Below are positions 3,779-23,664 of a DNA stretch of 32,000 nt, piece by piece. The stretch is from an uncultured Candidatus Bathyarchaeia archaeon. Lineage in GTDB: Archaea; Thermoproteota; Bathyarchaeia; RBG-16-48-13; CAYPFQ01. Numbering within the stretch: position 1 is the first letter of the stretch; the number at the start of each line of letters is the position of its first letter. The position numbers and the translations under genes are program-made. The notes below the pieces were generated by a model that worked only from the letters and a program-made list of their open reading frames with translations, searched no databases and was not told where the DNA came from. Location of the stretch: positions 3,824-35,823 of the forward strand of contig CAYYPV010000068.1 of the NCBI GenBank assembly GCA_964473665.1, given 5' to 3'.

Positions 3779-4636
3779 TTACTTCTTCCTACCCTGCATC
3801 CTATTAATAGGTTTAAACCATGTCCCAACTGCCTTTCCATCCAAAATGTCGACCAACACGCTATCTACAAAACTGTTGGCGACGACAACAGTAATTCCAT
3901 TTCGCATCGCAATCTCGGCTGCTTGAATCTTGGTCTTCATTCCACCTCTACCCAGTAGACTCTTACCCTCAACAGACCTCTTGAGCTCAGGCGTTATGCG
4001 TTCTACAAAGGGGATCAACTTTGCTCCAGGGCTCTTAGGATTCATAGTGTAAAGCCCGTCCACATTTGATAAAATGACTACTAGCTCTGCCTGAATAGTT
4101 TTTGCTATTAAGACTGATAAAATGTCGTTATCGCTGAAGTTTACTTCAATGCCCTTTGCAATGGGCTTCAACTCATCGACAGATGTTACGTCATTTTCAT
4201 TAACTATCGGAATAACTCCAAGTTGAAGTAACTTATCAAGCACATTACACATGCGCGAAGAAGACGCTCTGTTTGATAGATCTTCTTTGGTCAAGAGAAC
4301 CTGAGCAACCTTCAGTCCATGCCTCATAAATAATTCGCGATAATGAGCCATCAAGATACTCTGTCCAGTTGCAGCGCAGACCTGCTTGAAGACGATGTCA
4401 GCGGGGTTAAATTTGACTTTAAGTTCAGCCATACCCGACGCCACCGCCCCCGAGGTAATCAGCACTATCTTAAACCCTTTTCCAGCCGCTTCGGCAATCT
4501 GGCTCACCAACCTCTCCATCTCTTTCAGGTTTAGGCTGCCGTTGTCATCGGTCAGACTGCTAGTTCCCACCTTAACAACAACTAATCCGCGTTTGCTTCC
4601 GACTAGATCTGTACCCAAAGATTCATTCTCCACCAT
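3779..4636 (-). CDS. proB: glutamate 5-kinase (amino-acid kinase domain only)
   Basis: VVKVGTSSLTD at the N-terminus, ITSGAVA, IPIVNENDV and GRGGMKTKIQAA are typical ProB/AAK motifs. The ORF stops right after the ...GTWFKP...GRKK linker, where ProB normally continues into its PUA domain. Confidence 0.9.
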   Translation of the reverse strand: MVENESLGTDLVGSKRGLVVVKVGTSSLTDDNGSLNLKEMERLVSQIAEAAGKGFKIVLITSGAVASGMAELKVKFNPADIVFKQVCAATGQSILMAHYRELFMRHGLKVAQVLLTKEDLSNRASSSRMCNVLDKLLQLGVIPIVNENDVTSVDELKPIAKGIEVNFSDNDILSVLIAKTIQAELVVILSNVDGLYTMNPKSPGAKLIPFVERITPELKRSVEGKSLLGRGGMKTKIQAAEIAMRNGITVVVANSFVDSVLVDILDGKAVGTWFKPINRMQGRKK

Positions 4637-5054
4637 TCAAAAAATAACTCCGCAAGCCCCTTTGAATATAGACTCGTTCAGGTAATCATACTTATACTTT
4701 CTCGCGTCTTCGTCCTTCGTTCTGAGTTCTTCTTCGATCCATCTTCTTCATCGTTATTATTTGATTGTATACAATAGTTTCTAAGTAGGTTCGTTATTGA
4801 GATTTATTCCTGTAAGGCTCATGCAATCAACTTCAAAACTTAATATCTCACCACTTTTTCACCGGTATCCGTTCTCTGTGTTAGAGTCAGTAGGTGTTGA
4901 TTTTAGCCTAATTTTAAGGCGAGGAGCCAAAGATCGTAAGAAACCCATGGCTAGTGAAGCAGTAGCAAGATTTTTTTAGACTAAACATTCCTAGACTTAA
5001 TAAATGATAAACAAATAAACATCATTTAGAAATTAAGAGAATAGGTAGGAAAAA

Positions 5055-6152
5055 TTGAAGAAGAAACTTAGAAAAAGCACTGTCAAAACAAGAAAACTTC
5101 AAGTGGCAAAAAACCTTCAGGAATTTGGAACCGATTTATATGATCAGATGGAAAAAGGAGAGTTTCCATGGGTAAGAATGCCCAGCCGCTCTATTAATAA
5201 CATATGCTACGATCCTGGAACACGCCAATACGTTTTAGGCGATAGGTCTGTCATGAGGAGCGCTAGAAACATACGGCACATACGTCCACTTACCCAACTA
5301 ACTTGGATTGCGGATTTTGCATATCACTTAACGAGACAGAAAAAAACAAGCACTCTTCGAGACGTTTTCTACAATGCTCAAGCATACGACATGTCATTCA
5401 CAGATCAGCCGGAATCAGATGACATAATTACGGATCTAGAAACTATACTCGGATACGCACGCGAAGACTTCAGCATTTTCCCAGAAGAAAGAAGCGCAAT
5501 ATTCGGAAATTTGACAATAAGCTACACAGTACCAGGATACGAAGGAAAGAAACTTAATTTAACTTCACACCCTGACGGCGTCATGATAGGTCCAGCGCTA
5601 ACAAGCTCTGAACTTCTTGACACAGACGCCGAAATGGTAATTGCAATAGAAAAAGGAGCAATGTTCACACGATTTATCGAAGAAAAAGCCCATAAGAAGT
5701 TTAAAGCACTGTTAATACATACCGCAGGTCAAGCTCCAAGAGCGACTAGACAATTTTTACGCAGAATAAACAGTGAACTTGGTTTACCAGTTTACATATT
5801 CACAGACGGCGATCCATGGGGAATGCATATTGCCATGGTAATCATTTCAGGATCTGCGAACGCAGCACACCTTAGAGAACTTACCACACCAGACGCGAAA
5901 TGGTCAGGGGTTTGGGCTTCGGACATTGTGAATTACAAGCTTCCAAGCGAAAAACTAAATGACATGGATATTAGGCGACTGTACGAACTTCAAAGAGATC
6001 CTAGATATGAAGGAAAGCTCTGGAAGCAGGAAATAGACACGTTCTTCAAGACTAAAAAGAAGGCTGAACAAGAGGCTTTTAGCCGATACGGCCTAACCTA
6101 CATCGTCGACAAATACCTACCAGCTAAACTAGATGAAATGAAGTCATATTGA
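5055..6152 (+). CDS. top6A: DNA topoisomerase VI subunit A (Spo11 family)
   Basis: STLRDVFYNAQ gives the catalytic Tyr context, and IFTDGDPWGMHI is the Toprim DxD motif. The length of 365 aa fits. The start is TTG 5055. Confidence 0.92.
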   Translation: MKKKLRKSTVKTRKLQVAKNLQEFGTDLYDQMEKGEFPWVRMPSRSINNICYDPGTRQYVLGDRSVMRSARNIRHIRPLTQLTWIADFAYHLTRQKKTSTLRDVFYNAQAYDMSFTDQPESDDIITDLETILGYAREDFSIFPEERSAIFGNLTISYTVPGYEGKKLNLTSHPDGVMIGPALTSSELLDTDAEMVIAIEKGAMFTRFIEEKAHKKFKALLIHTAGQAPRATRQFLRRINSELGLPVYIFTDGDPWGMHIAMVIISGSANAAHLRELTTPDAKWSGVWASDIVNYKLPSEKLNDMDIRRLYELQRDPRYEGKLWKQEIDTFFKTKKKAEQEAFSRYGLTYIVDKYLPAKLDEMKSY

Positions 6153-6255
6153 AAATACGATTCCTCTGCGCCTAGTCCTTTATGCACACGTACCCAATGG
6201 TAAAGTTTATAGTTTCTACATTCACTTTTTATCTGTTACAGGTTGTGCATACACT

Positions 6256-6852
6256 GTGCCAGATGTTACAATAAGCGTTTCAGATGAATTAAAAACCGAA
6301 ATGGATGCTATTTCCGAAGTTAGTTGGTCGGAAATATGTAGTAAAGCTATTTTGCAGTATATTTCTGAAAGAAAGAATCCGACACCCAGTATAGAATTAG
6401 AAATTCAGGATGTGAAGTTTGTTCCTACCGAATATCATGAATCAGGCTATCCAACAATAATTGCATCCATTAAAATTCTCAATAAAACTATGTTTAACGT
6501 TACAATTGATAGAATCCTCTTTAACGTGAAGTTCTATTCAACCAAACCGGTAAAGGACTACAACATTGGATCAAGTTACGATTTATTTAGAAGAACAATT
6601 GATGCAGGGTCAGTCCTTGAAATACAATTACCCTTACCGATACTTAAAGAAAAAATAACCTCCCTCAGCAATTTATTTACGACAACATTCCGTTGCACAA
6701 TTCGATGCATCATTTTTGCAGACGGTTTTAGAATTCCTTACAGTCAAGAACTGTGGACAGAAATTCCAATCGACAGATGGAAAGAATTTACGGAAAAAGC
6801 CTTAAAACCACCTATTGATTTGTCAAAACTAGAGGACATTAAGCGATATTAA
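6256..6852 (+). CDS. hypothetical protein with an N-terminal ribbon-helix-helix-like segment and a LEA14/WHy-like beta-sandwich region
   Basis: VTISVSDELKTEMDAI...WSEICSKAILQYISE has a strand-helix-helix RHH pattern. IKILNKTMFNVTIDRILFNVKF resembles the LEA_2 (COG5608-like) core. The start is GTG. The functional call is from pattern only. Confidence 0.5.
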   Translation: MPDVTISVSDELKTEMDAISEVSWSEICSKAILQYISERKNPTPSIELEIQDVKFVPTEYHESGYPTIIASIKILNKTMFNVTIDRILFNVKFYSTKPVKDYNIGSSYDLFRRTIDAGSVLEIQLPLPILKEKITSLSNLFTTTFRCTIRCIIFADGFRIPYSQELWTEIPIDRWKEFTEKALKPPIDLSKLEDIKRY

Positions 6853-6915
6853 TGAGATATTAATAACGCAACATTTTTGCATAACGCCTCTGCACCTATT
6901 TACAGGGTAGTCTTA

Positions 6916-8388
6916 ATGGCCGAGGCGTATCCATTAACTGGGAAGGCGGAGAGACTTCTAAATATAATTGAGGAACTAGGCGCAAATATCAATTTGCCTA
7001 GACTATTGCGGGATTCGAAATATCTATTAGAAATATATAGAATTCTGCAAAAAGACTACGCTGATCTAGATCGATTAAGGGACGATATAGAATTCCGAGG
7101 CGGTGTTTACGCCCCATACCCCTCACCAAGAACGATGGGTACAGCTGAAGTAAGAGAAACTCCCGAAGGGCCTCCATCTGAAATCGGATACTTGATGCGT
7201 TACGCAAAAATTAAAAGTGTTCAGTTATCCGCGATAAAAGCGACTATCGATCGTTTAAGAGCAGCATTAGCTGCGCATAGGATAGCGATAAATCATCTAA
7301 CTGAGTACTGCGCAGTCCTGTGTCAAGATTGCGGAAAATTTTTCAGAGGTAAACCCGCTCTTAAAGCAATTAGCACAAATAAATGTCCTAACTGTGGGTC
7401 GTCCAAAATACTATTCACGCCAAATAACGTAGGCATTTTTCGCATAGAACTTATACCATATCTGCCCCTATCAGGGGACTATATGCGTAGAATAACGCAG
7501 CTTCCAAGTCATGCTCGAATAACATATGGAAAGATGACTAGATATTTGAGAGAAAGTGTTGGAGGAAGGGTTAGGTCCTTTTCCATTATAGTTCGGGTCC
7601 AAGTTGGAGATAAAACTTTGAGACGACGTATCAGCTTTCGCGCAGAGCCTAGAGAGTCGGTCAACTATGAAGCAGTTATTAGGAAAAGATTCGGCCCATC
7701 CGCAAGAATTGAATCGATCAGATATCACCGTACACAACCAGTTCTACTGAATGATAGGTACACTAGAGCATGTATCGCGCTTGCATACGTGAGTTTAACC
7801 TATGACGTGTGGGCTTCCAGAAAAAGTCAAGTTCGAATCGTATCTAGGAAAATTGATGCCGAAAAAACTCTATTAAAACTTCCAATATATGTCCTAATTC
7901 ATGATCTGGCTCGTTACTTTCTACTTAAACCTCCAAAATCGAGAAGAAGATTGGCGGGAGCTTTTCCATATTTAGAGAGCAGCCCTCAAGCCAGTATAGT
8001 AGAATCTCTCTTTGCAATATTACAAGACGAAGACTCCGCTTTTGCGGCAAAAATGCTTGGTTTAACAGGGGAAACTATCCCTCTTGAAGTCATCCGATTA
8101 AAATTTGTCATCGAAAAAAATTATGAAACAAAAATACGCGATTTAGGCCTAGTATCAAGCAGAGGAATTGCCGCAGCTCTACTTTACTTAACTTCAAAAT
8201 ATGATCTACCTCAGGCATCAAATTTTTTTAACACAACTAAATCTGAAGGAATTAAAGCATTAGAAAAACTTGCGCAAGCTGACATCAGTAGTGAATTACC
8301 GGAGAGTGGAAGAGATAAACTTGCAAATATAGAGGCGCCTAGGACAACTATAGCGAAAGAGTTCATCAAAGCATTGAAGGAGACCTAA
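6916..8388 (+). CDS. large conserved-looking hypothetical protein with an internal C4 zinc ribbon
   Basis: The long ORF is tracked from TTG 6877, but ATG 6916 (MAEAYPLTGK) is the more likely start. The zinc ribbon is CQDCGKFF...x16...CPNCGSSK. It may belong to an archaeal DUF family of about 500 aa, which I cannot verify. Confidence 0.6.
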   Translation: MAEAYPLTGKAERLLNIIEELGANINLPRLLRDSKYLLEIYRILQKDYADLDRLRDDIEFRGGVYAPYPSPRTMGTAEVRETPEGPPSEIGYLMRYAKIKSVQLSAIKATIDRLRAALAAHRIAINHLTEYCAVLCQDCGKFFRGKPALKAISTNKCPNCGSSKILFTPNNVGIFRIELIPYLPLSGDYMRRITQLPSHARITYGKMTRYLRESVGGRVRSFSIIVRVQVGDKTLRRRISFRAEPRESVNYEAVIRKRFGPSARIESIRYHRTQPVLLNDRYTRACIALAYVSLTYDVWASRKSQVRIVSRKIDAEKTLLKLPIYVLIHDLARYFLLKPPKSRRRLAGAFPYLESSPQASIVESLFAILQDEDSAFAAKMLGLTGETIPLEVIRLKFVIEKNYETKIRDLGLVSSRGIAAALLYLTSKYDLPQASNFFNTTKSEGIKALEKLAQADISSELPESGRDKLANIEAPRTTIAKEFIKALKET

Positions 8389-8775
8389 ATGTATATAATA
8401 AAGGCTAAAAATCGAACCGAACTGCTTCAGAAGATACAAAATGAACTCGATCCTAGTGCTAAAGAAGTTTACATAGATGTACGCCCAAGCATTCAAATCA
8501 TTATTTCAATCCTAAATAAGGCGCCGAGCATTAATTCAATTCATATTCCAAAAAGTCTATACGAGGAAACACCTAGAAAAATAAAAAACGCGTTAAATAA
8601 AGTTCAAATAAAATTACTTCCATCAAATATACCCCAAGGAAGACCTAAAACACACAGTGAAAAAAAAATAGATTCTGTGTTTAAACTATCTAAAGAAGGG
8701 AAAACTGCTAAGATGATATCTATTGAAACCGGATTGCCGCTTAGAACCGTCTATTACTATCTAAAGAAGGAATAA
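8389..8775 (+). CDS. small protein with a C-terminal resolvase-type helix-turn-helix
   Basis: Its ATG directly abuts the TAA of the upstream gene (TAAATG at 8386-8391). The C-terminal GKTAKMISIETGLPLRTVYYYLKK is a typical HTH_7-like motif. Confidence 0.6.
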   Translation: MYIIKAKNRTELLQKIQNELDPSAKEVYIDVRPSIQIIISILNKAPSINSIHIPKSLYEETPRKIKNALNKVQIKLLPSNIPQGRPKTHSEKKIDSVFKLSKEGKTAKMISIETGLPLRTVYYYLKKE

Positions 8776-17077: not shown

Positions 17078-18631
17078 TTAGACCTGAATGGGCTTTTGAC
17101 TTATAACCTGCTTCATTTTTGCCCAAGCTTCTCTTGCTGTTACTCCAGCCTTCCGTGGATAATCCTGAACAGACATTTCGGCTATGACAGGGAATGGTGT
17201 TGGAGATGCTGCCCCCCAGATTAGCGCCTCATGATCAGCTAAGCCTGGTAAATAGTCTCGCAGTCTTTCGCTTCCACACTCAGTATACTTCAATATGGAA
17301 TCTTGGTCGTTACCAGACATTAATCTGAAGCATACAACTGTGTTGCACTGTGATATTATAGACTTCATAACATAGGCTGGTCTCTGCGTTAAAACTATGA
17401 AGCCTATGTTGTATCCGCCAGCTTGACTTATCGCTTCGACTAGTTGTTTATCTAACCCTATTCTCTCAGGGCTTCCCACTTCTATATCAAGACCTCTCTC
17501 CGGTGCGTAATACTGCGCTTCTTCAACTACTAGAACCGCTGAAAAGTCGCCTTGGTCTCTTCTAGCCATTGCATGTGAAACTATGTTCTTTATTATGTGT
17601 TTTAACGTAACCTGCTGTTCTTCAACATCAGTATCGATTGAAAAATCTATAATAACAATCGGATTTGTTAATACTGCTGCTATAATGTCCAGTGTCACTA
17701 TTTTCTCATCAAGGAAAGATCCTCTCGTGGTAATTGCCCAACGAATTCTTTCTAGAACGCGGTTACGTTCACGGCTGATGGCGAATGAGGACAGTTCTTG
17801 AATTTTAGCCAGTAATGTTTCTCTTGTTAATTCACGACTTTCAACATTTAGAGTTTCAATTGCATCCGCAATCATTTTGCCAGTAGAGTTTCTAGTTTCA
17901 AATCCAAGTCTTCGTGCAACTATTTCCCCTGTGAGAACGTCAGCTTTAGGTAGAAATTGGCGGTAAGGAACTATAAGGGCCCCGCATTTTGTCAATGTAG
18001 CATACTCTCCTCTTCTATCGAAGATTACGAAGTGTGGCGGAGGATTAAGCTCCTTAGATTTAATAATTAAATTAAGAGCAAAGCTACTTTTACCCGATCT
18101 AGTCATTCCCGCAACAAATAAATGTCCTTTAGCTATCCCGTTTAAATCCAGAGATATAGGCGTATTTAAGCCTCTATGTTTTCCAATTGTAAGATAATGC
18201 GGTTCCATTGCAGATGAACAATTAATTTTGCGGTGTGAGGCCACAGTGAAAAAGTAATTTATCTCCTCTTCCTCAGGCTCAAAAACCGGGTCATATGTCC
18301 CAGGGGCGCATTCTAATCCATACCATTTACCATTCTCGCTGATATAACCAAGAATTTCAGCTAACGCTACATCATATTCAAGTTGCTTTCCATACTGTGC
18401 CGGTTCACCCTTCTTGCATGCTATTGGCCCTGCGCGCCCTCGGCACATCTCAGGGTTATACGGCGTTACACGGAATACCCGAATTAAAACTGGGGCAATA
18501 TGTTCCTTACGCGATTTCATCGGATGCCGAATAAAGTAGTACTTGTTAACATAAACTTTTTCAGTTTCTTTAACTACGAACGGGACAAAATTCTGCGAAC
18601 AACCTGAAAGAATGTAGCCTATTTCCCTCAT
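17078..18631 (-). CDS. herA: HerA-like (FtsK/HerA superfamily, DUF87-type) ATPase
   Basis: Residue numbers follow the tracked 528-aa ORF. It has an N-terminal HAS-barrel-like region, Walker A AGMTRSGKS (res 185-193), Walker B AVLVVEEAQ (res 376-384) and LTQRP (res 425-429). I prefer ATG 18631 (MREIGYILSG) because it forms an ATGA overlap with the upstream stop. The tracked TTG 18664 would add 11 aa. Confidence 0.85.
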   Translation of the reverse strand: MREIGYILSGCSQNFVPFVVKETEKVYVNKYYFIRHPMKSRKEHIAPVLIRVFRVTPYNPEMCRGRAGPIACKKGEPAQYGKQLEYDVALAEILGYISENGKWYGLECAPGTYDPVFEPEEEEINYFFTVASHRKINCSSAMEPHYLTIGKHRGLNTPISLDLNGIAKGHLFVAGMTRSGKSSFALNLIIKSKELNPPPHFVIFDRRGEYATLTKCGALIVPYRQFLPKADVLTGEIVARRLGFETRNSTGKMIADAIETLNVESRELTRETLLAKIQELSSFAISRERNRVLERIRWAITTRGSFLDEKIVTLDIIAAVLTNPIVIIDFSIDTDVEEQQVTLKHIIKNIVSHAMARRDQGDFSAVLVVEEAQYYAPERGLDIEVGSPERIGLDKQLVEAISQAGGYNIGFIVLTQRPAYVMKSIISQCNTVVCFRLMSGNDQDSILKYTECGSERLRDYLPGLADHEALIWGAASPTPFPVIAEMSVQDYPRKAGVTAREAWAKMKQVISQKPIQV

Positions 18632-19851
18632 CTTAAACCCTCTTCGCGACCCAATTCTTGCCAAGATTCACCTTCATGCAGTGACCACTGTTCTCCATAC
18701 TGAAGTATGAACAGGTCAAGGTCTGCTGGATCCAACTCTCCCTTCTTTACAAGATCTAACGCTTTTGTGTACAGCAACAACGCATGAATGTTTGAGGTTG
18801 GTTTTGTGATTTTCGTGTAGCGATCAGCTTCATGGACTGGATAAGGTATTCCTTCAGGATCGGCCATTGTAAGAAGGATTGACGCAATTTCCTCAATTTT
18901 ATCTAAACAGAAAAGAGGGACTTCAATTCTGTAAGGTGGTGTTTGGCCAGTTTTAATGTATGATGAATAAATTTCAGCGATCGATTCGTCAAACTCAAAT
19001 TTGTCGGCGAACTGCTGGTAAGTCTTTGTTACCATGTTCTTAATTTGGAATGGTTCAATGTACTCTCCAGTGTTCATTAATGAGTTGAGAATAATCGTGT
19101 CTCTCATAGGCGTCATATTACAGGTACTGTAGAAGTAATTCATCTGCGTCCTTTTAACGAAGCCTACTACACCCACTCCGCGTCGTTTACATGTTTCCAG
19201 CAAAGATAGAGCTGTAATTAAAGTGAAAATGAAGTCACCGCGGTACTCATCTGAACCACCAAATTTAATGTGAAGCCGCGGATTTAGAACAAGTCCGCCG
19301 TCAAAGAAAATGTAAGCTGGATTCCATTTTTCAACAGCTTTCTTAGCGACATGATATTCAAGCGCCATATGAAGAAGGCTCTCTCTTCTATCGGCATCTT
19401 TTTCAGAAGGCCATACGTCAGGTGCACCTGCAGCGCATAAAGGCTCTTCAGTTATTTTCCAATTGTCAACTAGAACAGCGACAGCACCATAAATTGGCAC
19501 AAAAGCGAATCTATAATTTGTTCCATTTCGGCCAGCATCAGCTCCAACAATCTTTCTTGAAGCAATATCAACATCTCGGCGTGCTGAATGGAGTTTTATT
19601 CGTCCATAAAGCTGCTCAACTATTTTTCTTCTATAAGCTGCATATTCCTTTAACTTCTCAAGAACACTGTCAGTTCCATTATCAATAAGGTCATGGTACA
19701 ATCCTGTGTAAATTGTCTCAGCAGTCTCACCAGCGAAAATCCGTGATATAAACTCAACGGGTAGCGGCTTAACAGCGTCCAAAGTAGGGAAACGAAAATC
19801 ACTTATTGTCGAGTTTGAAACATTTTCTATATGGGTGTGGTGGGGTATCAT
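18628..19851 (-). CDS. nurA: NurA-domain nuclease-like protein
   Basis: It shows a NurA-like motif series: IVGADAGRNG (D105), ALEYH (E165), IFFDGGLVLNP (D184), VGFVKRTQ (K233) and GIPYPVHEAD (H340/D343). A strong SD (GGAGGT) lies 7 nt before the ATG. The call is from motif pattern, not from a search. Confidence 0.7.
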   Translation of the reverse strand: MIPHHTHIENVSNSTISDFRFPTLDAVKPLPVEFISRIFAGETAETIYTGLYHDLIDNGTDSVLEKLKEYAAYRRKIVEQLYGRIKLHSARRDVDIASRKIVGADAGRNGTNYRFAFVPIYGAVAVLVDNWKITEEPLCAAGAPDVWPSEKDADRRESLLHMALEYHVAKKAVEKWNPAYIFFDGGLVLNPRLHIKFGGSDEYRGDFIFTLITALSLLETCKRRGVGVVGFVKRTQMNYFYSTCNMTPMRDTIILNSLMNTGEYIEPFQIKNMVTKTYQQFADKFEFDESIAEIYSSYIKTGQTPPYRIEVPLFCLDKIEEIASILLTMADPEGIPYPVHEADRYTKITKPTSNIHALLLYTKALDLVKKGELDPADLDLFILQYGEQWSLHEGESWQELGREEGLR

Positions 19852-19909: not shown

Positions 19910-19951
19910 TCCGCCGCACCCGCTTCAGACGGATGCGTTAACGCGGAATAA

Positions 19952-20392
19952 TCATGCTAATACGTACACATAGCCCTCCTCAGTTTTCCAGCGGCGCAGT
20001 TTATTTCTTCTGGTCAAACGTTCAAGGGTTTTTGCTACTGTGGCTATTGGATAATGAAGCGCATTTGCTTCAAGCACTGTTGCAGTATCACTTAATGTTC
20101 GTGGTTTCTCTTTGGCCCAATCTGAAGAGAAAAGCTGAGTGAGTGCATCGCTGCAGCTTTCAGTTGTTGAGATAGATGGATATGACGAGCCAGTAGCTAC
20201 TGGTTTTTCAGTTACATTAAGCGATTGTGAAGTTACGGATGTTGAGGGTTGCGTTGATACAAACGCTTTCGATACCTTATTCACTATTTCCGGTAGATCA
20301 TTAAGGGCTTGGAGAACTTCTTCACGTGTGCCGCTTAGTTCGATTTCATAGTTACCGATTTTAACTCGAAGTGAAAATGGCTGTATGCTCAT
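19952..20392 (-). CDS. paralog 4 of a four-member family: N-terminal module, S/T-rich linker, divergent C-terminal winged-helix-like region
   Basis: LRVKIGNYEIELSGTREEVLQALNDL matches the N-modules of the three upstream genes. Its ATG overlaps the stop of paralog 3 (ATGA). The C-terminal TVAKTLERLTRRNKLRRWKTEEGYVYVL is wHTH-like. Confidence 0.65.
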   Translation of the reverse strand: MSIQPFSLRVKIGNYEIELSGTREEVLQALNDLPEIVNKVSKAFVSTQPSTSVTSQSLNVTEKPVATGSSYPSISTTESCSDALTQLFSSDWAKEKPRTLSDTATVLEANALHYPIATVAKTLERLTRRNKLRRWKTEEGYVYVLA

Positions 20393-20901
20393 TTCTTTTC
20401 TCCTCCTTGAATATTTATACGAGGCAAAATCACATCGCAGACATTCTTTATCCCAAGATTTGTAATTCGGTATTCACCTTTTCCAATCCGTTCAATTAGT
20501 CCATCGTCGACCATCCAAGCTAACTGATTTATTACGGTCTTTACCGCCTTACCTGTGAATCTGGCAAGCTCATCAACCGTTAAGGAATTCTTCGCCAATT
20601 TGCCTATTTTTTCCCCAACATAGGATCCTACTAAACATAAACCCATCGCTTCATCAGCGGGCAATTCTAACCGTGAAGAGAGTAATGGCCCCTCGGGTGC
20701 TATCACCAAAATTCCATTTAGATTCTCAATTAACCTCGAAATGTCTGTTGTATATACTAATCGAGAAACAGCTTCAAACGTCGGAAACGCTTGATTTAAT
20801 AGCTTAACAATCTCTTTAAACACCTCATCAGCTGTCCCCTCTACATCCGCCTTTAATTCTCCAAATTCGACATGGACTCGAACCTTGGGTTGAACGCTCA
20901 A
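20389..20901 (-). CDS. paralog 3: N-terminal module, middle domain and C-terminal winged helix-turn-helix
   Basis: The N-module is VRVHVEFGELKADVEGTADEVFKEIVKLL, the middle domain is LNGILVIAPEGPL...ADEAMGLCLVGSYVG, and the wHTH is TVDELARFTGKAVKTVINQLAWMVDDGLIERIGKGEYRITNLG. The start is TTG with GAGAGTGAG upstream. Confidence 0.7.
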   Translation of the reverse strand: MSVQPKVRVHVEFGELKADVEGTADEVFKEIVKLLNQAFPTFEAVSRLVYTTDISRLIENLNGILVIAPEGPLLSSRLELPADEAMGLCLVGSYVGEKIGKLAKNSLTVDELARFTGKAVKTVINQLAWMVDDGLIERIGKGEYRITNLGIKNVCDVILPRINIQGGEKK

Positions 20902-20917
20902 ATTTACTCACTCTCAG

Positions 20918-21421
20918 TTAAGATTTTAACTTCGGAATGACGCCTTCTAAGAATAGTTTTATTCCTAATGTTGTAATTTGATACTCTCCTCGTCCCAGGC
21001 GCATAACCCAGCCTTCATCAGTTAATTCGCTCAGACGACCTGCTACAGCCCCCGGCTTTCCACCTATGAGAGATATAATTTCCGCAATAGAAAGTGACGG
21101 TCTATCCATCTTTTTGAGTTGATGCCCAACGTACGCTTTAACTAAATGCAAAATTATTGCGTCACGATCGGTCAGTCGTTCCCGCTGTATTACAATTACT
21201 AACCCTTCTGGAGTAACAGCGATAATTCCTTCTAACGCTCTCAGTAATTGTTCCAAATCTGCGGTTAGAGTTAAACGGGATATAATCTCATAGGCCGGGT
21301 AGACTTTACCAAGAAAGGCCAGAATGCCGGATGTTACTTCATTAATTGATCCCGAGAACTTTGCTTCAGAATCGCCGAATCGAATAGAAACCTCCAATCT
21401 CTTCTCCTCACTCAACCGCAT
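20918..21421 (-). CDS. paralog 2: N-terminal module, middle domain and C-terminal winged helix-turn-helix
   Basis: The N-module is LEVSIRFGDSEAKFSGSINEVTSGILAFL, the middle domain is LEGIIAVTPEGLV...DRDAIILHLVKAYVG, and the wHTH is SIAEIISLIGGKPGAVAGRLSELTDEGWVMRLGRGEYQITTLG. The start is ATG 21421, or the GTG 21424 that directly abuts the TAG of paralog 1. Confidence 0.7.
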   Translation of the reverse strand: MRLSEEKRLEVSIRFGDSEAKFSGSINEVTSGILAFLGKVYPAYEIISRLTLTADLEQLLRALEGIIAVTPEGLVIVIQRERLTDRDAIILHLVKAYVGHQLKKMDRPSLSIAEIISLIGGKPGAVAGRLSELTDEGWVMRLGRGEYQITTLGIKLFLEGVIPKLKS

Positions 21422-21424
21422 CAC

Positions 21425-21880
21425 CTAAACCTTAAGCCTAGTAATAATGTCTTCAACCCATTTTTTCCCATTTACAGATAAGCGATAGGCTTTTTCCTCC
21501 TTAACTATGAGACCTTCCAACCTCATTTCACTAAGACGAGCTCCGAAGCCCGGCGAATGTCTGCCGCCTAACTCTAGAATTCTACCCAACTCTTTCGGTT
21601 CAACTGGATTCGGATCATGGGCATATAAAAGTAAGCCTAGGGCTTCTTTATCACTAATGCTCTCCTTCGGGACAATTAATACAGCGCCTTCGCTAGAAAA
21701 ATCTACAATGCCGGATAACACAACTTTGGCGTCAGGAACCACTTCAGGGGCGATAATCATCTTATCTATTATGTTAAGCCAGTCGGGAACCGCCTGTAGA
21801 TGCTCAATTATCTCATCTAATGTGCTACCTTCAAGCTCAACTTCTCCAAACGGCCTCTTTATTACTACGCGAATTTTCAT
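21425..21880 (-). CDS. paralog 1: N-terminal module, middle domain and C-terminal winged helix-turn-helix
   Basis: The N-module is IRVVIKRPFGEVELEGSTLDEIIEHL, the middle domain is LSGIVDFSSEGAVLIV...DKEALGLLLYAH, and the wHTH is ELGRILELGGRHSPGFGARLSEMRLEGLIVKEEKAYRLSVNG. It is the first gene of the operon. Confidence 0.7.
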   Translation of the reverse strand: MKIRVVIKRPFGEVELEGSTLDEIIEHLQAVPDWLNIIDKMIIAPEVVPDAKVVLSGIVDFSSEGAVLIVPKESISDKEALGLLLYAHDPNPVEPKELGRILELGGRHSPGFGARLSEMRLEGLIVKEEKAYRLSVNGKKWVEDIITRLKV

Positions 21881-21881
21881 T

Positions 21882-21940
21882 TTGGAGCCCCTGCTATAAT
21901 AGCTCCAACTAATATAAAAAAGTAACTATTTTACGTAAAA
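21882..21940 (-). promoter_or_regulatory. putative promoter/operator of the six-gene operon
   Basis: All three elements read on the minus strand. A TATA-like TTTTTATATT (21911-21920) sits 31-40 nt upstream of the ATG. The perfect 12-bp palindrome TTTTACGTAAAA (21929-21940) lies just upstream of it. A 7-bp inverted repeat TTGGAGC/GCTCCAA (21882-21888 and 21902-21908) lies between the TATA and the ATG. Confidence 0.4.
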
Positions 21941-22019
21941 ATTACATATATATTATGCGTGATTAATGACAGAACTTAATACATTTATAAGCGAACCCCT
22001 ATAAAACAGGATTCAGTTT

Positions 22020-22466
22020 TCAGTGTTTTCTCAAATATTCATCAATAATTTCATCGAATCTCTTGCCAAAATCGTCTAACTCACTCTCTGAAAAGTAATC
22101 CACCATGAAAGGTATCATTTTTTCCTCTTCTTTCAACCAATGAGCGCGCATAATATCGTATAGCGGGGCTAATTTGTACCGCCAACTCTCTCGGTCATAT
22201 CCTTCCTTAATTAGCGCTTCAAAATGTATCTTCATATCCGCATGTTCTACCTCGAGCTCAAAGGCCATTTCCTTTAAGTCGGGAATATTAATCATCCGCG
22301 GGAAAATCGTCAATTCTTCACCTAAATGGTGTGCATAGAGTTTCCTTTGGAAGTCAGTAAATAACTGTTCTTGCAATTTGGCATCTTTTGGAGAGGTCTT
22401 GAATAACTTTGCGAAAAGCCTCCTGTACTCACCATGGCCTCTTTTTATTGACTCGCCAATCCCCAC
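22020..22466 (-). CDS. hemerythrin (HHE cation-binding) domain protein
   Basis: The His/Glu spacing is YAHHLGEELTIFP, ELEVEHADM and RAHWLKEEEKMIPF. The start is GTG. Confidence 0.8.
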   Translation of the reverse strand: MGIGESIKRGHGEYRRLFAKLFKTSPKDAKLQEQLFTDFQRKLYAHHLGEELTIFPRMINIPDLKEMAFELEVEHADMKIHFEALIKEGYDRESWRYKLAPLYDIMRAHWLKEEEKMIPFMVDYFSESELDDFGKRFDEIIDEYLRKH

Positions 22467-22720
22467 TTTTCTTCACTTTTTATAAAAGACTCTTTAACAA
22501 AACCTCAAATATTGATTTTTGATAATTCGAGATTTATATAAATATAAACACGTATACTTGTTGAATTTATTTGAGAATTGACAGCGCTTCTGGTTTTACT
22601 TACCCTTAATATTGGTGCGATAGAACCAATTTTTAAATGCACGCGATACGAGTTCCCAAAATCTAGCTATTCGTATTCTGAAATCTCTAAAAATATACAC
22701 AAATATTTTGAAAATGAATT

Positions 22721-23068
22721 TTACAAATTTCGTAGGAAGTCGTCAAGTGCAATTGCATTGTTGTACTTCTCTTCCTTAGCAGAATAAAGAAGCGTTATTG
22801 TTCCCTTTTCATTTTCTATTTCTTTGATTTTCATGAGTAAATTTTTTTTATCTTTCAATTCACTTTTATATCTCTTTTTGAACTCTTCCCATTTCCTAGG
22901 ATCATGGGAAAACCATTTTCGCGTTTCATCACTTGGAGCAATTTCCTTCATCCAGAGATCAATTTTAGCTTTATACTTCGATAATCCTCTCGGCCATAAT
23001 CTGTCCACTAGAATTCGATAACCATCCTCTCTTTCTGGCTTTTCGTAAATTCTCTTTATTTTCCTCAC
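22721..23068 (-). CDS. DUF488 (YeaO-like) family protein
   Basis: [25 protein letters not shown]...WMKEIAPS...TLLYSAKEE is colinear with E. coli YeaO as I recall it ([25 protein letters not shown]...WDKEITPS...TLLYSAKN). The start is GTG. Confidence 0.85.
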
Positions 23069-23187
23069 ATGTACTCATCCAATCTACATTATAGCCTCGC
23101 GCAAGCCCTATTTGTCTATATTCATAAAATATTGGTCTAATTCTAATCCTTAAAAATAAATTCACGATTTACTCATATCTCTTAGAA

Positions 23188-23458
23188 ATGATCATTATGG
23201 AATTTTCTGAGAAGAAATTTACTTTGGAAGAGTTGAAACAGTATAATGGCATGAATGCCCAGATCCGCCTACACAGCTTACAAGGGTAAGGTCTACGACG
23301 TAACTGATGATCCTCTCTGGATTGAAGGTGACCATCAGGGAGAACATAAGGCGGGAGTAGATTTGACCGAAGAACTCAGCCAAGCACCTCACGGAGAAGA
23401 TGAACTAGCGATGGTTAAGCTCATAGGCATACTCGTTCCATCAGTCGATAAAAAATAA
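23188..23458 (+). pseudogene. cytochrome b5-like heme/steroid-binding domain gene interrupted by a +1 frameshift
   Basis: Frame 1 reads M..MEFSEKKFTLEELKQYNGMNAQ and then runs to a stop at 23287-23289. Frame 2, from 23255, continues SAYTAYKGKVYDVTDDPLWIEGDHQGEHKAGVDLTEEL. Removing one C from CCC 23258-23260 joins them into one b5-like domain. Confidence 0.7.
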
Positions 23459-23664
23459 GAATTTATTTTCATCTACTCGGTAGAAGTATCAGCACAGCCA
23501 CTAATCACGACCTCTTTTAACGACCTGTCGATTCAATTTTAGCTAGATGATGAACTTTAGTTCTCGTTCTAAAAGATGCCTCAAATTCACGCACTCTCAA
23601 CGCGTTAATGGACCAAGCGATGAATCTCAATTTGGTAAGTAAAAAGAGTTTGCCCAATTTTTTA

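Follow-up and report, generated by a model that had tools for sequence, protein, structure and literature searches.

Why should an archaeal operon for a nuclease and a DNA-translocating ATPase carry four small, mutually similar proteins that belong to no named family? The question is raised by a stretch of 32,000 nucleotides (nt; below, the window) from contig CAYYPV010000068.1 (positions 3,824 to 35,823, forward strand) of an uncultured Candidatus Bathyarchaeia archaeon. According to the open reading frames of the window and the public gene calls, six closely packed minus-strand genes run from 21880 down to 17078 in the order P1-P2-P3-P4-NurA-HerA. HerA-NurA is the DNA-end resection machine of archaea, and we know of no account of how it is targeted outside the Mre11-Rad50 context. 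Our answer is a tentative one, held at somewhat less than even confidence: P1-P4 may be the DNA-targeting or regulatory subunits of an orphan NurA-HerA DNA-end-processing machine composed of two linked modules. It starts from direct observations, namely the paralogy of the four proteins, the fold of their winged-helix half, the conservation of the operon, purifying selection, the linkage of P4 to the NurA-HerA genes, and arrays of ACGT palindromes specific to P1. Judged by their sequences, P1-P4 are four ancient subfamilies of one small, probably DNA-binding protein family, so far found only in Bathyarchaeia. The genes are as follows.

21425-21880, minus strand: P1, 151 amino acids (aa), ATG start; the public gene call is identical
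20918-21421, minus strand (20918-21424 with a GTG start): P2, 167 aa, or 168 aa from the GTG; the public call uses the ATG at 21421
20389-20901, minus strand: P3, 170 aa, TTG start; "ArsR family" regulator in public records
19952-20392, minus strand: P4, 146 aa
18628-19851, minus strand: NurA-domain nuclease, 407 aa (Pfam NurA, 1.4e-19)
17078-18631, minus strand: HerA/FtsK-type (DUF87) ATPase, 517 aa, Walker A motif GMTRSGKS (Pfam DUF87, 2.8e-13)

The HerA start at 18631 was chosen from orthologs and the public gene call. P2 starts directly after the P1 stop codon, the P3/P4 and NurA/HerA pairs overlap by 4 nt each, and P4 is separated from NurA by a spacer of 100 nt, with a GGAGG ribosome-binding site before NurA.

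Paralogy, selection and distribution

An earlier note, made from the letters of this DNA, had described a tandem tetrad of paralogs sharing an N-terminal module and a C-terminal winged helix, and had overlooked that the operon runs on into NurA-HerA. The four genes lie in tandem on the minus strand where that note placed them, all peptide strings quoted there were found in the translations, and the similarity among the proteins is far above chance by blastp and by hhalign, the latter run profile against profile on deep ortholog alignments of each paralog. The scores of the pairs are:

P2-P3: blastp 3e-34, 33% identity over the full length; hhalign 100%
P1-P2: blastp 2.5e-7; hhalign 98.9%
P1-P3: blastp 7e-4; hhalign 97.3%
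P1-P4: blastp 8e-5; hhalign 94.2%, with 123 collinear columns over N-module and winged helix
P2-P4: blastp not significant; hhalign 55%, collinear
P3-P4: blastp 2.7e-4, over the N-terminal 40 aa only; hhalign 21%

From these scores, all four proteins are homologous and collinear, and P4 joins the family mainly via P1 and via the N-module. The N-module is common to all four, as the note had it, and the middle block is likewise confined to P1-P3. P4 is the outlier: it carries a linker rich in Ser, Thr and Pro in place of the middle block and has no C-terminal helix. The best-conserved member is P2.

The copies had also been taken as retained and diverged, with no recent duplication. This agrees with the evolutionary data: throughout Bathyarchaeia the orthologs of each paralog make up a separate group, and the ratio of non-synonymous to synonymous substitution (dN/dS) in close pairs is 0.03-0.15 for P1-P4, with NurA and HerA in the same range, so that the duplication is ancient. 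P-gene identities generally rise and fall with HerA identity, which points to vertical inheritance. Given this co-variation and the low dN/dS, diversifying selection, with the P proteins as specificity subunits, was rejected as a general pattern.

Profile searches of 5.8 billion proteins returned 499 protein clusters for P1/P2 and 344 for P4, all annotated as 'hypothetical' and, where a taxon was given, assigned to Bathyarchaeia, MCG (Miscellaneous Crenarchaeotic Group) or Thermoproteota; P3 is represented by 24 ortholog clusters. Orthologs of P1 were found at 40-60% identity in the loci L007, L009, L049 and others. An exhaustive hidden Markov model search of 1.84 billion representatives with a profile of the N-region retrieved 185 proteins (92 at E<=1e-10), nearly all of 160-180 aa with the same architecture, which argues against a wider superfamily. 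No relatives of the P family were found on the viral contigs searched, no family in Pfam, NCBIfam, PADLOC or among solved structures covers P1-P4, and literature searches found no paper describing these proteins or their link to NurA-HerA. The P family thus appears compact, lineage-restricted and without a named relative. The winged helix and NurA-HerA are of known kinds; the set of four paralogous partners is new, and so are the extra modules and the operator that go with it.

Fold and domain architecture

P3 was modelled with AlphaFold2 (AF2) together with 24 orthologs, at a mean confidence (predicted local distance difference test, pLDDT) of 83 and a predicted template modelling score (pTM) of 0.69. 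In the model, the N-module is a strand-turn-strand-helix element (strands 7-13 and 16-22, helix 24-38), followed by a loop of low confidence (42-49), the middle block (helix 54-61, strands 65-68 and 71-74), a winged helix with pLDDT >90 (helix 82-98, strand 106-108, helices 109-116 and 120-132, strands 136-140 and 143-146) and a C-terminal helix (148-165). P1 and P2 have the same architecture of N-terminal beta-hairpin and helix, middle block and winged helix.

The C-terminal winged helix that the note had proposed for all four proteins was modelled for P3 and extended to P1, P2 and P4 via hhalign. In P3 it scores above threshold with Pfam HTH_5 (25.1 bits, cut-off 22, E 1.6e-5) and reaches 16.3 bits with NCBIfam HTH_metalloreg against a cut-off of 55; P1, P2 and P4 gave nothing above threshold with these ArsR/SmtB models. 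A Foldseek search of P3 against the PDB matched the winged-helix half only, at a probability of 0.99-1.0 to AspA, MarR and IclR. The matches comprised pNOB8 AspA (target TM-score 0.70), MarR, IclR and CRP-family proteins, the best at E 2e-3, and the N-terminal half had no match in the PDB. In a viral structure library P3 matched just generic winged helices, and sequence-profile searches of the PDB returned nothing real, a match to a TAL effector being a low-complexity artefact. Ortholog alignments show invariant basic or polar residues in the recognition helix, which reads 'ARLSEM' in P1 and 'GKAxKTxxN' in P3, and in the wing.

With ArsR/SmtB, MarR and the PadR-like AspA, the P proteins share the topology helix-strand-helix-helix-strand-strand, a C-terminal helix (P1-P3) and, in the case of P1, palindromes upstream of its own gene. 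They differ from these regulators in the N-terminal beta-hairpin and helix and the middle block, which have no match in Pfam, the PDB or Foldseek, in having no metal or ligand sites, and in standing four in tandem, of which only P3 reaches a Pfam threshold. PADLOC gave no match for NurA, P1 and P4, and matched P2 and P3 only to the winged helix of AbiEi, Csa3 and CARF models. The AbiEi matches (Pfam AbiEi_4, 22.8 bits against a cut-off of 25, 1e-4; PADLOC AbiEi, 8.7e-5) cover the winged helix only; autoregulation via promoter repeats is typical of AbiEi as well, but there the winged helix is N-terminal, whereas here it is C-terminal, and the operon holds no AbiEii nucleotidyltransferase. Similarly, the PADLOC matches to Csa3 (2.5e-6) and CARF3 comprise residues 100-151, that is, the winged helix alone, and, in contrast to Csa3/CasR, there is no CARF domain match in the N-terminal half and no CRISPR-Cas neighbourhood. 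Because the winged helix alone matches, identities as a CARF/Csa3 protein or AbiEi were rejected, and that of an ArsR metal sensor is doubtful, P3 lying above one ArsR/SmtB cut-off and below the other.

A further impression of the note, that the N-module resembles the first half of a beta-grasp domain, found no support. No ThiS-, MoaD- or ubiquitin-like Pfam model matched. When residues 1-80 of P3 were modelled alone (41 sequences), pLDDT was 64 and pTM 0.38, the confidence of the middle block fell from 80-91 to 53-63, and the Foldseek matches were noise (best E 1.4). From this drop we assign the middle block, in structural terms, to the winged-helix part and regard the beta-hairpin and helix as a small separate element. 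As P4 has the N-module but none of the later strands, and the middle block and winged helix occur elsewhere without the N-module, these are separable pieces and not one beta-grasp (MoaD/ThiS/ubiquitin-like) domain. A tandem winged-helix arrangement as in ESCRT-II, ScpB or KITE proteins, with the middle block as a degenerate second winged helix, was also dropped; for this idea, Foldseek offered a single weak match, a JetABC chain at rank 34 (E 0.017), and listed neither ESCRT-II nor ScpB.

Composition of the operon across Bathyarchaeia

About 100 loci were fetched with P2 or P3 as anchor; the ubiquity of these two genes is therefore partly by construction. The operon recurs across metagenome-assembled genomes and metagenomes of Bathyarchaeia, with neighbours that differ and are always housekeeping genes. 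The commonest order is P1-P2-P3-P4-NurA-HerA, and the variants are as follows.

P2-P3-P4-NurA-HerA: L001
P1-P2-P4-NurA-HerA: L078, L063, L054
P2-P3, then a divergently transcribed P4-like gene, then NurA-HerA: L041, L067, L069, L083, L087
HerA and NurA in reverse orientation, then a P4-like gene, then P1-P2-P3: L026, L037
P(1)-P2-P3 with NurA-HerA not adjacent, and with GatE, ribosomal L10 or thiolase genes alongside: L040, L046, L047, L085, L092

Nine loci contain an extra P1 paralog, P1b (hhalign 99.8% to P1), and the number of copies, which the note had proposed to follow across related genomes, ranges from 2 to 5. P4, or a divergent form of it (P4b, hhalign 97% to P4), adjoins NurA in 35 of 36 distinct NurA-bearing loci and is missing from each of the 8 loci whose flanks are long enough to show that NurA-HerA is not there.

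The nuclease-motor pair is itself divergent. NurA scores 11.6 bits with NCBIfam NurA_Sulf (cut-off 400); HerA scores 47 bits with helicase_HerA (cut-off 970), 38 with HerA_Thermprot (cut-off 800) and 67.9 with HerA_antiphage (cut-off 800), and matches PADLOC HerA at 1.3e-30. Compared with the canonical herA-mre11-rad50-nurA operons of Sulfolobus, Pyrococcus and Thermococcus, the likeness lies in NurA and a hexameric HerA (DUF87) side by side with overlapping genes, and in extra DNA-binding partner genes in the same operon. The difference is that four small winged-helix paralogs stand here where Mre11 and Rad50 stand there, and that the equivalog scores are far too low. The Pfam domains of canonical archaeal HerA-NurA are thus present, while equivalog-level similarity and linkage to mre11/rad50 are absent; Mre11 and Rad50 were found neither in the operon nor beside it in the ~100 loci. 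Two types of NurA-HerA occur behind the same P genes (compare L005:1852-4393 and L011:6638-9199 with window 17078-19851). They match each other at a blastp E of ~0.06 with ~22% identity, while the P genes are 45-55% identical across the two groups, and both types lie below every NCBIfam HerA/NurA equivalog cut-off; the second HerA type matches the DNA-translocating ATPase CedD weakly. Two barely alignable types in the same slot suggest that the nuclease-motor pair was replaced in place during the evolution of Bathyarchaeia.

In many lineages a conserved protein of 230-255 aa, 'Q', which does not occur in the window, is encoded right upstream of P1/P2 by a divergently transcribed gene (L047:4703-5422, L046:5123-5860, L026:4598-5311, L040:5116-5811 and 22 more). 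Its N-terminus resembles a winged helix and is connected by a basic linker to a strand-helix at the C-terminus; it matched nothing in Pfam or NCBIfam, and hhalign showed no homology to the P family.

ACGT palindromes upstream of P1

In most lineages, the region upstream of P1 contains 2-4 copies, spaced 10-11 bp apart, of an 8-bp palindrome (TAACGTTA, TAACGTCA or TTACGTAA), in an array that stops just before a TATA-like AAGCTTTTAAA element (examples: L011:4457-4486, L014:5459-5494, L033:109-137, L009:1799-1828, L047:5447-5476). The frequency of the palindrome is 1.86 per 120 nt across 42 distinct upstream regions of operons that begin with P1, against a background of 0.078, and zero in 26 upstream regions of operons that begin with P2. 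The ~700 kb of loci contain 14 clusters of >=3 palindromes, every one of them 17-98 nt ahead of P1, and the pattern of two sites in 11-bp register, present in 20 loci, matched at this same place before P1 with one exception. The corresponding elements of the window are listed below.

21931-21938: palindrome TTACGTAA within TTTTACGTAAAA; represents the operator-like ACGT element in the window, at a distance of 51-58 nt from the P1 ATG on its upstream side
21910-21921, minus strand: A/T-rich TTTTTTATATTA, a putative TATA box read from the sequence, in the position of the AAGCTTTTAAA-type element of orthologous promoters
21882-21908: inverted repeat TTGGAGC-N13-GCTCCAA with perfect 7-bp arms, downstream of the TATA-like box and ahead of the P1 ATG

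The palindrome arrays are good circumstantial evidence for autoregulation of the operon, and the most likely reader of the ACGT sites would be P1. The P1 residue preceding 'RLSE' in the recognition helix co-varies with the half-site: Ala occurs with TTACG in 10 of 11 loci and Ser with TAACG in 22 of 23 (Fisher p = 9e-7, uncorrected for phylogeny). P1 of the window has Ala. The TTGGAGC-N13-GCTCCAA repeat, of which no copy was seen in the other loci, may serve as a further operator or form a hairpin in the 5' leader. A scan for bacterial promoters and terminators is uninformative for an archaeon.

The P4-NurA spacer of the window contains a perfect 10-bp palindrome, GCGTTAACGC (19935-19944), which has the AACG half-site in common with the P1 operators and is followed by a 7-bp inverted repeat, TCACAAG...CTTGTGA.

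Fusions and reuse of the modules

Parts of the P proteins recur in other contexts. In P0301 (L096:322-1929; 535 aa), a Ser/Thr kinase precedes two units of middle block and winged helix, the first P2-like and the second P3-like, each without the N-module. One defence-like cluster with several P-like modules was found at L097:1094-5592 and L098:2546-4689. It encodes a 141-aa protein that is middle block and winged helix alone, a 376-aa protein with a PD-(D/E)xK-like N-domain and a complete P-like unit, a 258-aa protein in which a P1-like middle block and winged helix follow a TIR-like domain (PADLOC, 7.6e-12), and a superfamily 2 helicase resembling ResIII/XPB (PADLOC PbeA, 6e-22). In P0403 (L099:145-1125), a DUF488 domain is fused to the C-terminus of a P-like protein. 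Judged by these cases, three pieces can be separated from each other (the N-module, the middle block with the winged helix, and the linker), and P2-like and P3-like units can be covalently joined. The module would seem to be employed where several proteins need bringing together, which fits an assembly or adaptor role.

Proposed role of P1-P4

In the two-module arrangement that we tentatively favour, the first module would be P1-P2-P3, in which P1 would bind the TAACGTTA/TTACGTAA arrays just upstream of the TATA box and autoregulate the operon, and P2 and P3 would form an obligate pair. The second would be P4-NurA-HerA, with P4, which has a flexible linker and no middle block, as an adaptor travelling with the nuclease-motor pair. 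Through the N-modules and middle blocks that they have in common, the paralogs would assemble into a hetero-oligomer, and this hetero-oligomer would bring DNA to NurA-HerA or gate its activity, taking the place that Mre11-Rad50 has in canonical archaeal herA-nurA operons. DNA binding by each P protein, the identity of the ACGT-site reader, hetero-oligomerisation and the contact with NurA-HerA are all predictions of this arrangement. A hetero-oligomer of paralogs, which the note had suggested, is plausible on indirect grounds, these being the P2-like/P3-like fusion, the conserved adjacency, and the overlapping or abutting genes.

Several points weigh against the arrangement. The N-module is predicted at pLDDT 66-80 only. 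The window itself has one perfect ACGT site and no array, and the Ala/Ser covariation with the half-site may stem from a single clade split. The kinase fusion P0301 was seen on one 2-kb contig only, where an assembly chimera is possible. Finally, 8 loci have P(1)-P2-P3 beside ribosomal, GatE or thiolase genes and no NurA-HerA next to them, so that the P1-P3 module can be genomically independent of the nuclease.

A more specific form of the proposal appears rather unlikely: that the four-paralog winged-helix hetero-oligomer runs the NurA-HerA of Bathyarchaeia instead of Mre11-Rad50 via a new beta-hairpin-helix module, recognising ACGT palindromes or DNA ends to load or gate the machine. In an uncultured archaeal class that is large and abundant worldwide, an orphan NurA-HerA is accompanied by three to four dedicated winged-helix paralogs that are named in no database. 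Nuclease-translocase control would have a new architecture here if the P proteins serve as subunits or loaders, with testable parts: proteins of ~150 aa, an 8-bp operator and two enzyme types. Were the more specific form to hold, DNA ends would be processed, or DNA surveyed, by a complex of a new kind, and its adaptor module would be one that TIR, nuclease and kinase proteins carry as well; the occurrence of the module on such proteins hints at a wider adaptor role.

Alternative readings

P1-P4 could instead be ordinary transcription factors, homodimeric winged-helix regulators of the operon and perhaps of a DNA-damage regulon, with the linkage to NurA-HerA reflecting co-regulation only. The sole recognisable domain is indeed a winged helix of ArsR, MarR, AbiEi or Csa3 type, operator-like arrays stand in the promoter, public records already name P3 an "ArsR family" regulator and, as the strongest point, the 8 loci with P(1)-P2-P3 lack an adjacent NurA-HerA. 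Yet three to four separate orthologous groups kept class-wide in one translationally coupled operon would be unusual for simple regulators, and P4 follows NurA-HerA almost perfectly, even where it is divergently transcribed. The P2-like/P3-like fusion and the TIR, nuclease and kinase proteins that carry the module speak for a part in protein assembly, and the restriction of the arrays to P1 leaves P2, P3 and P4 without an evident operator. We regard this reading as somewhat unlikely; plain autoregulators would still constitute a new regulator family with a clear operator.

In a role in defence against viruses or plasmids, the winged-helix paralogs would sense foreign DNA and license NurA-HerA to destroy it. 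The best NCBIfam and PADLOC matches of HerA are anti-phage HerA families, but these matches are far below the cut-offs (68 against 800 bits). The bacterial anti-phage systems Sir2-HerA and DUF4297-HerA likewise couple a HerA-type ATPase to a nuclease or effector, and P-like modules elsewhere sit on TIR-like or nuclease-like proteins, with middle block and winged helix recurring in the defence-like L097/L098 cluster beside the TIR-like and PD-(D/E)xK-like domains and the PbeA-like helicase. Here, in contrast to those systems, the effector is NurA, the context is core-genomic and under purifying selection, the operon is class-wide, and four winged-helix partners are present.

A third point in favour of defence is a replacement of the P1-P3 cassette, the exception to the vertical pattern. 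The window and L078 (a contig of 1.25 Mb) share ~83% DNA identity on both flanks of the operon front: L078 2-4019 corresponds to window 27695-23665 and L078 6502-9845 to window 20403-17063, the second aligned block beginning exactly at the P4 start codon. The segment between the blocks cannot be aligned.

20404-23664: unalignable segment with the P3, P2, P1, hemerythrin and DUF488 genes; L078 counterpart 4020-6501

Protein identity between window and L078 is 90% for HerA, 83% for NurA, 84% for P4, 54% for P2 and 47% for P1, and L078 has no P3; synonymous divergence (dS) is ~0.7-0.9 for P4, NurA and HerA, and >=2.3 or saturated for P1 and P2. The sequence comparison identifies the difference as a one-off cassette replacement with a breakpoint at the P3/P4 junction, which again sets the P1-P3 module apart from the P4-NurA-HerA module. 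Against a role in defence stand the strong purifying selection and mostly vertical co-variation with HerA, the housekeeping neighbours with no defence islands or mobile elements, the very wide and non-patchy occurrence of the operon within one class, and the absence of relatives on viral contigs. A defence function is accordingly improbable.

Very improbable is a device for chromosome segregation or DNA transport, with P1 acting like AspA on the ACGT arrays, P2-P4 as adaptors and HerA as an FtsK-like DNA pump: pNOB8 AspA is the top structural match of the winged-helix half and, like P1 in this picture, reportedly binds a palindrome upstream of its own gene, sites repeated at helical-turn spacing fit cooperative spreading, and the second HerA type weakly matches CedD, but the AspA match is that of a generic winged helix (E ~5e-3, 20% identity), no ParA or ParB partner as in AspA-ParB-ParA partition is present, the NurA nuclease would be an odd component, and the arrays are small (2-4 sites) and located at the promoter.

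Surroundings of the operon in the window

The neighbours in the window are core chromosomal genes: both subunits of topoisomerase VI, proline synthesis genes, six tRNAs, phosphoglycerate kinase, ribose-5-phosphate isomerase, a tRNA synthetase of Trp/Tyr type and DUF1512. A DUF488 gene (22721-23068) lies two genes upstream of the operon; together with the DUF488 fusion in P0403, this may be coincidental or point to a link in function. Topoisomerase VI B (transducer part, 61-936) and A (5055-6152) are ~4 kb apart, and the gap is occupied by genes of proline-biosynthesis type (P5C reductase, aldehyde dehydrogenase, amino-acid kinase). At 6877-8775, a DUF530 protein of 503 aa is directly followed by a 128-aa protein with DUF1699 and a resolvase-type HTH_7; DUF530 and DUF1699 are uncharacterised archaeal families.

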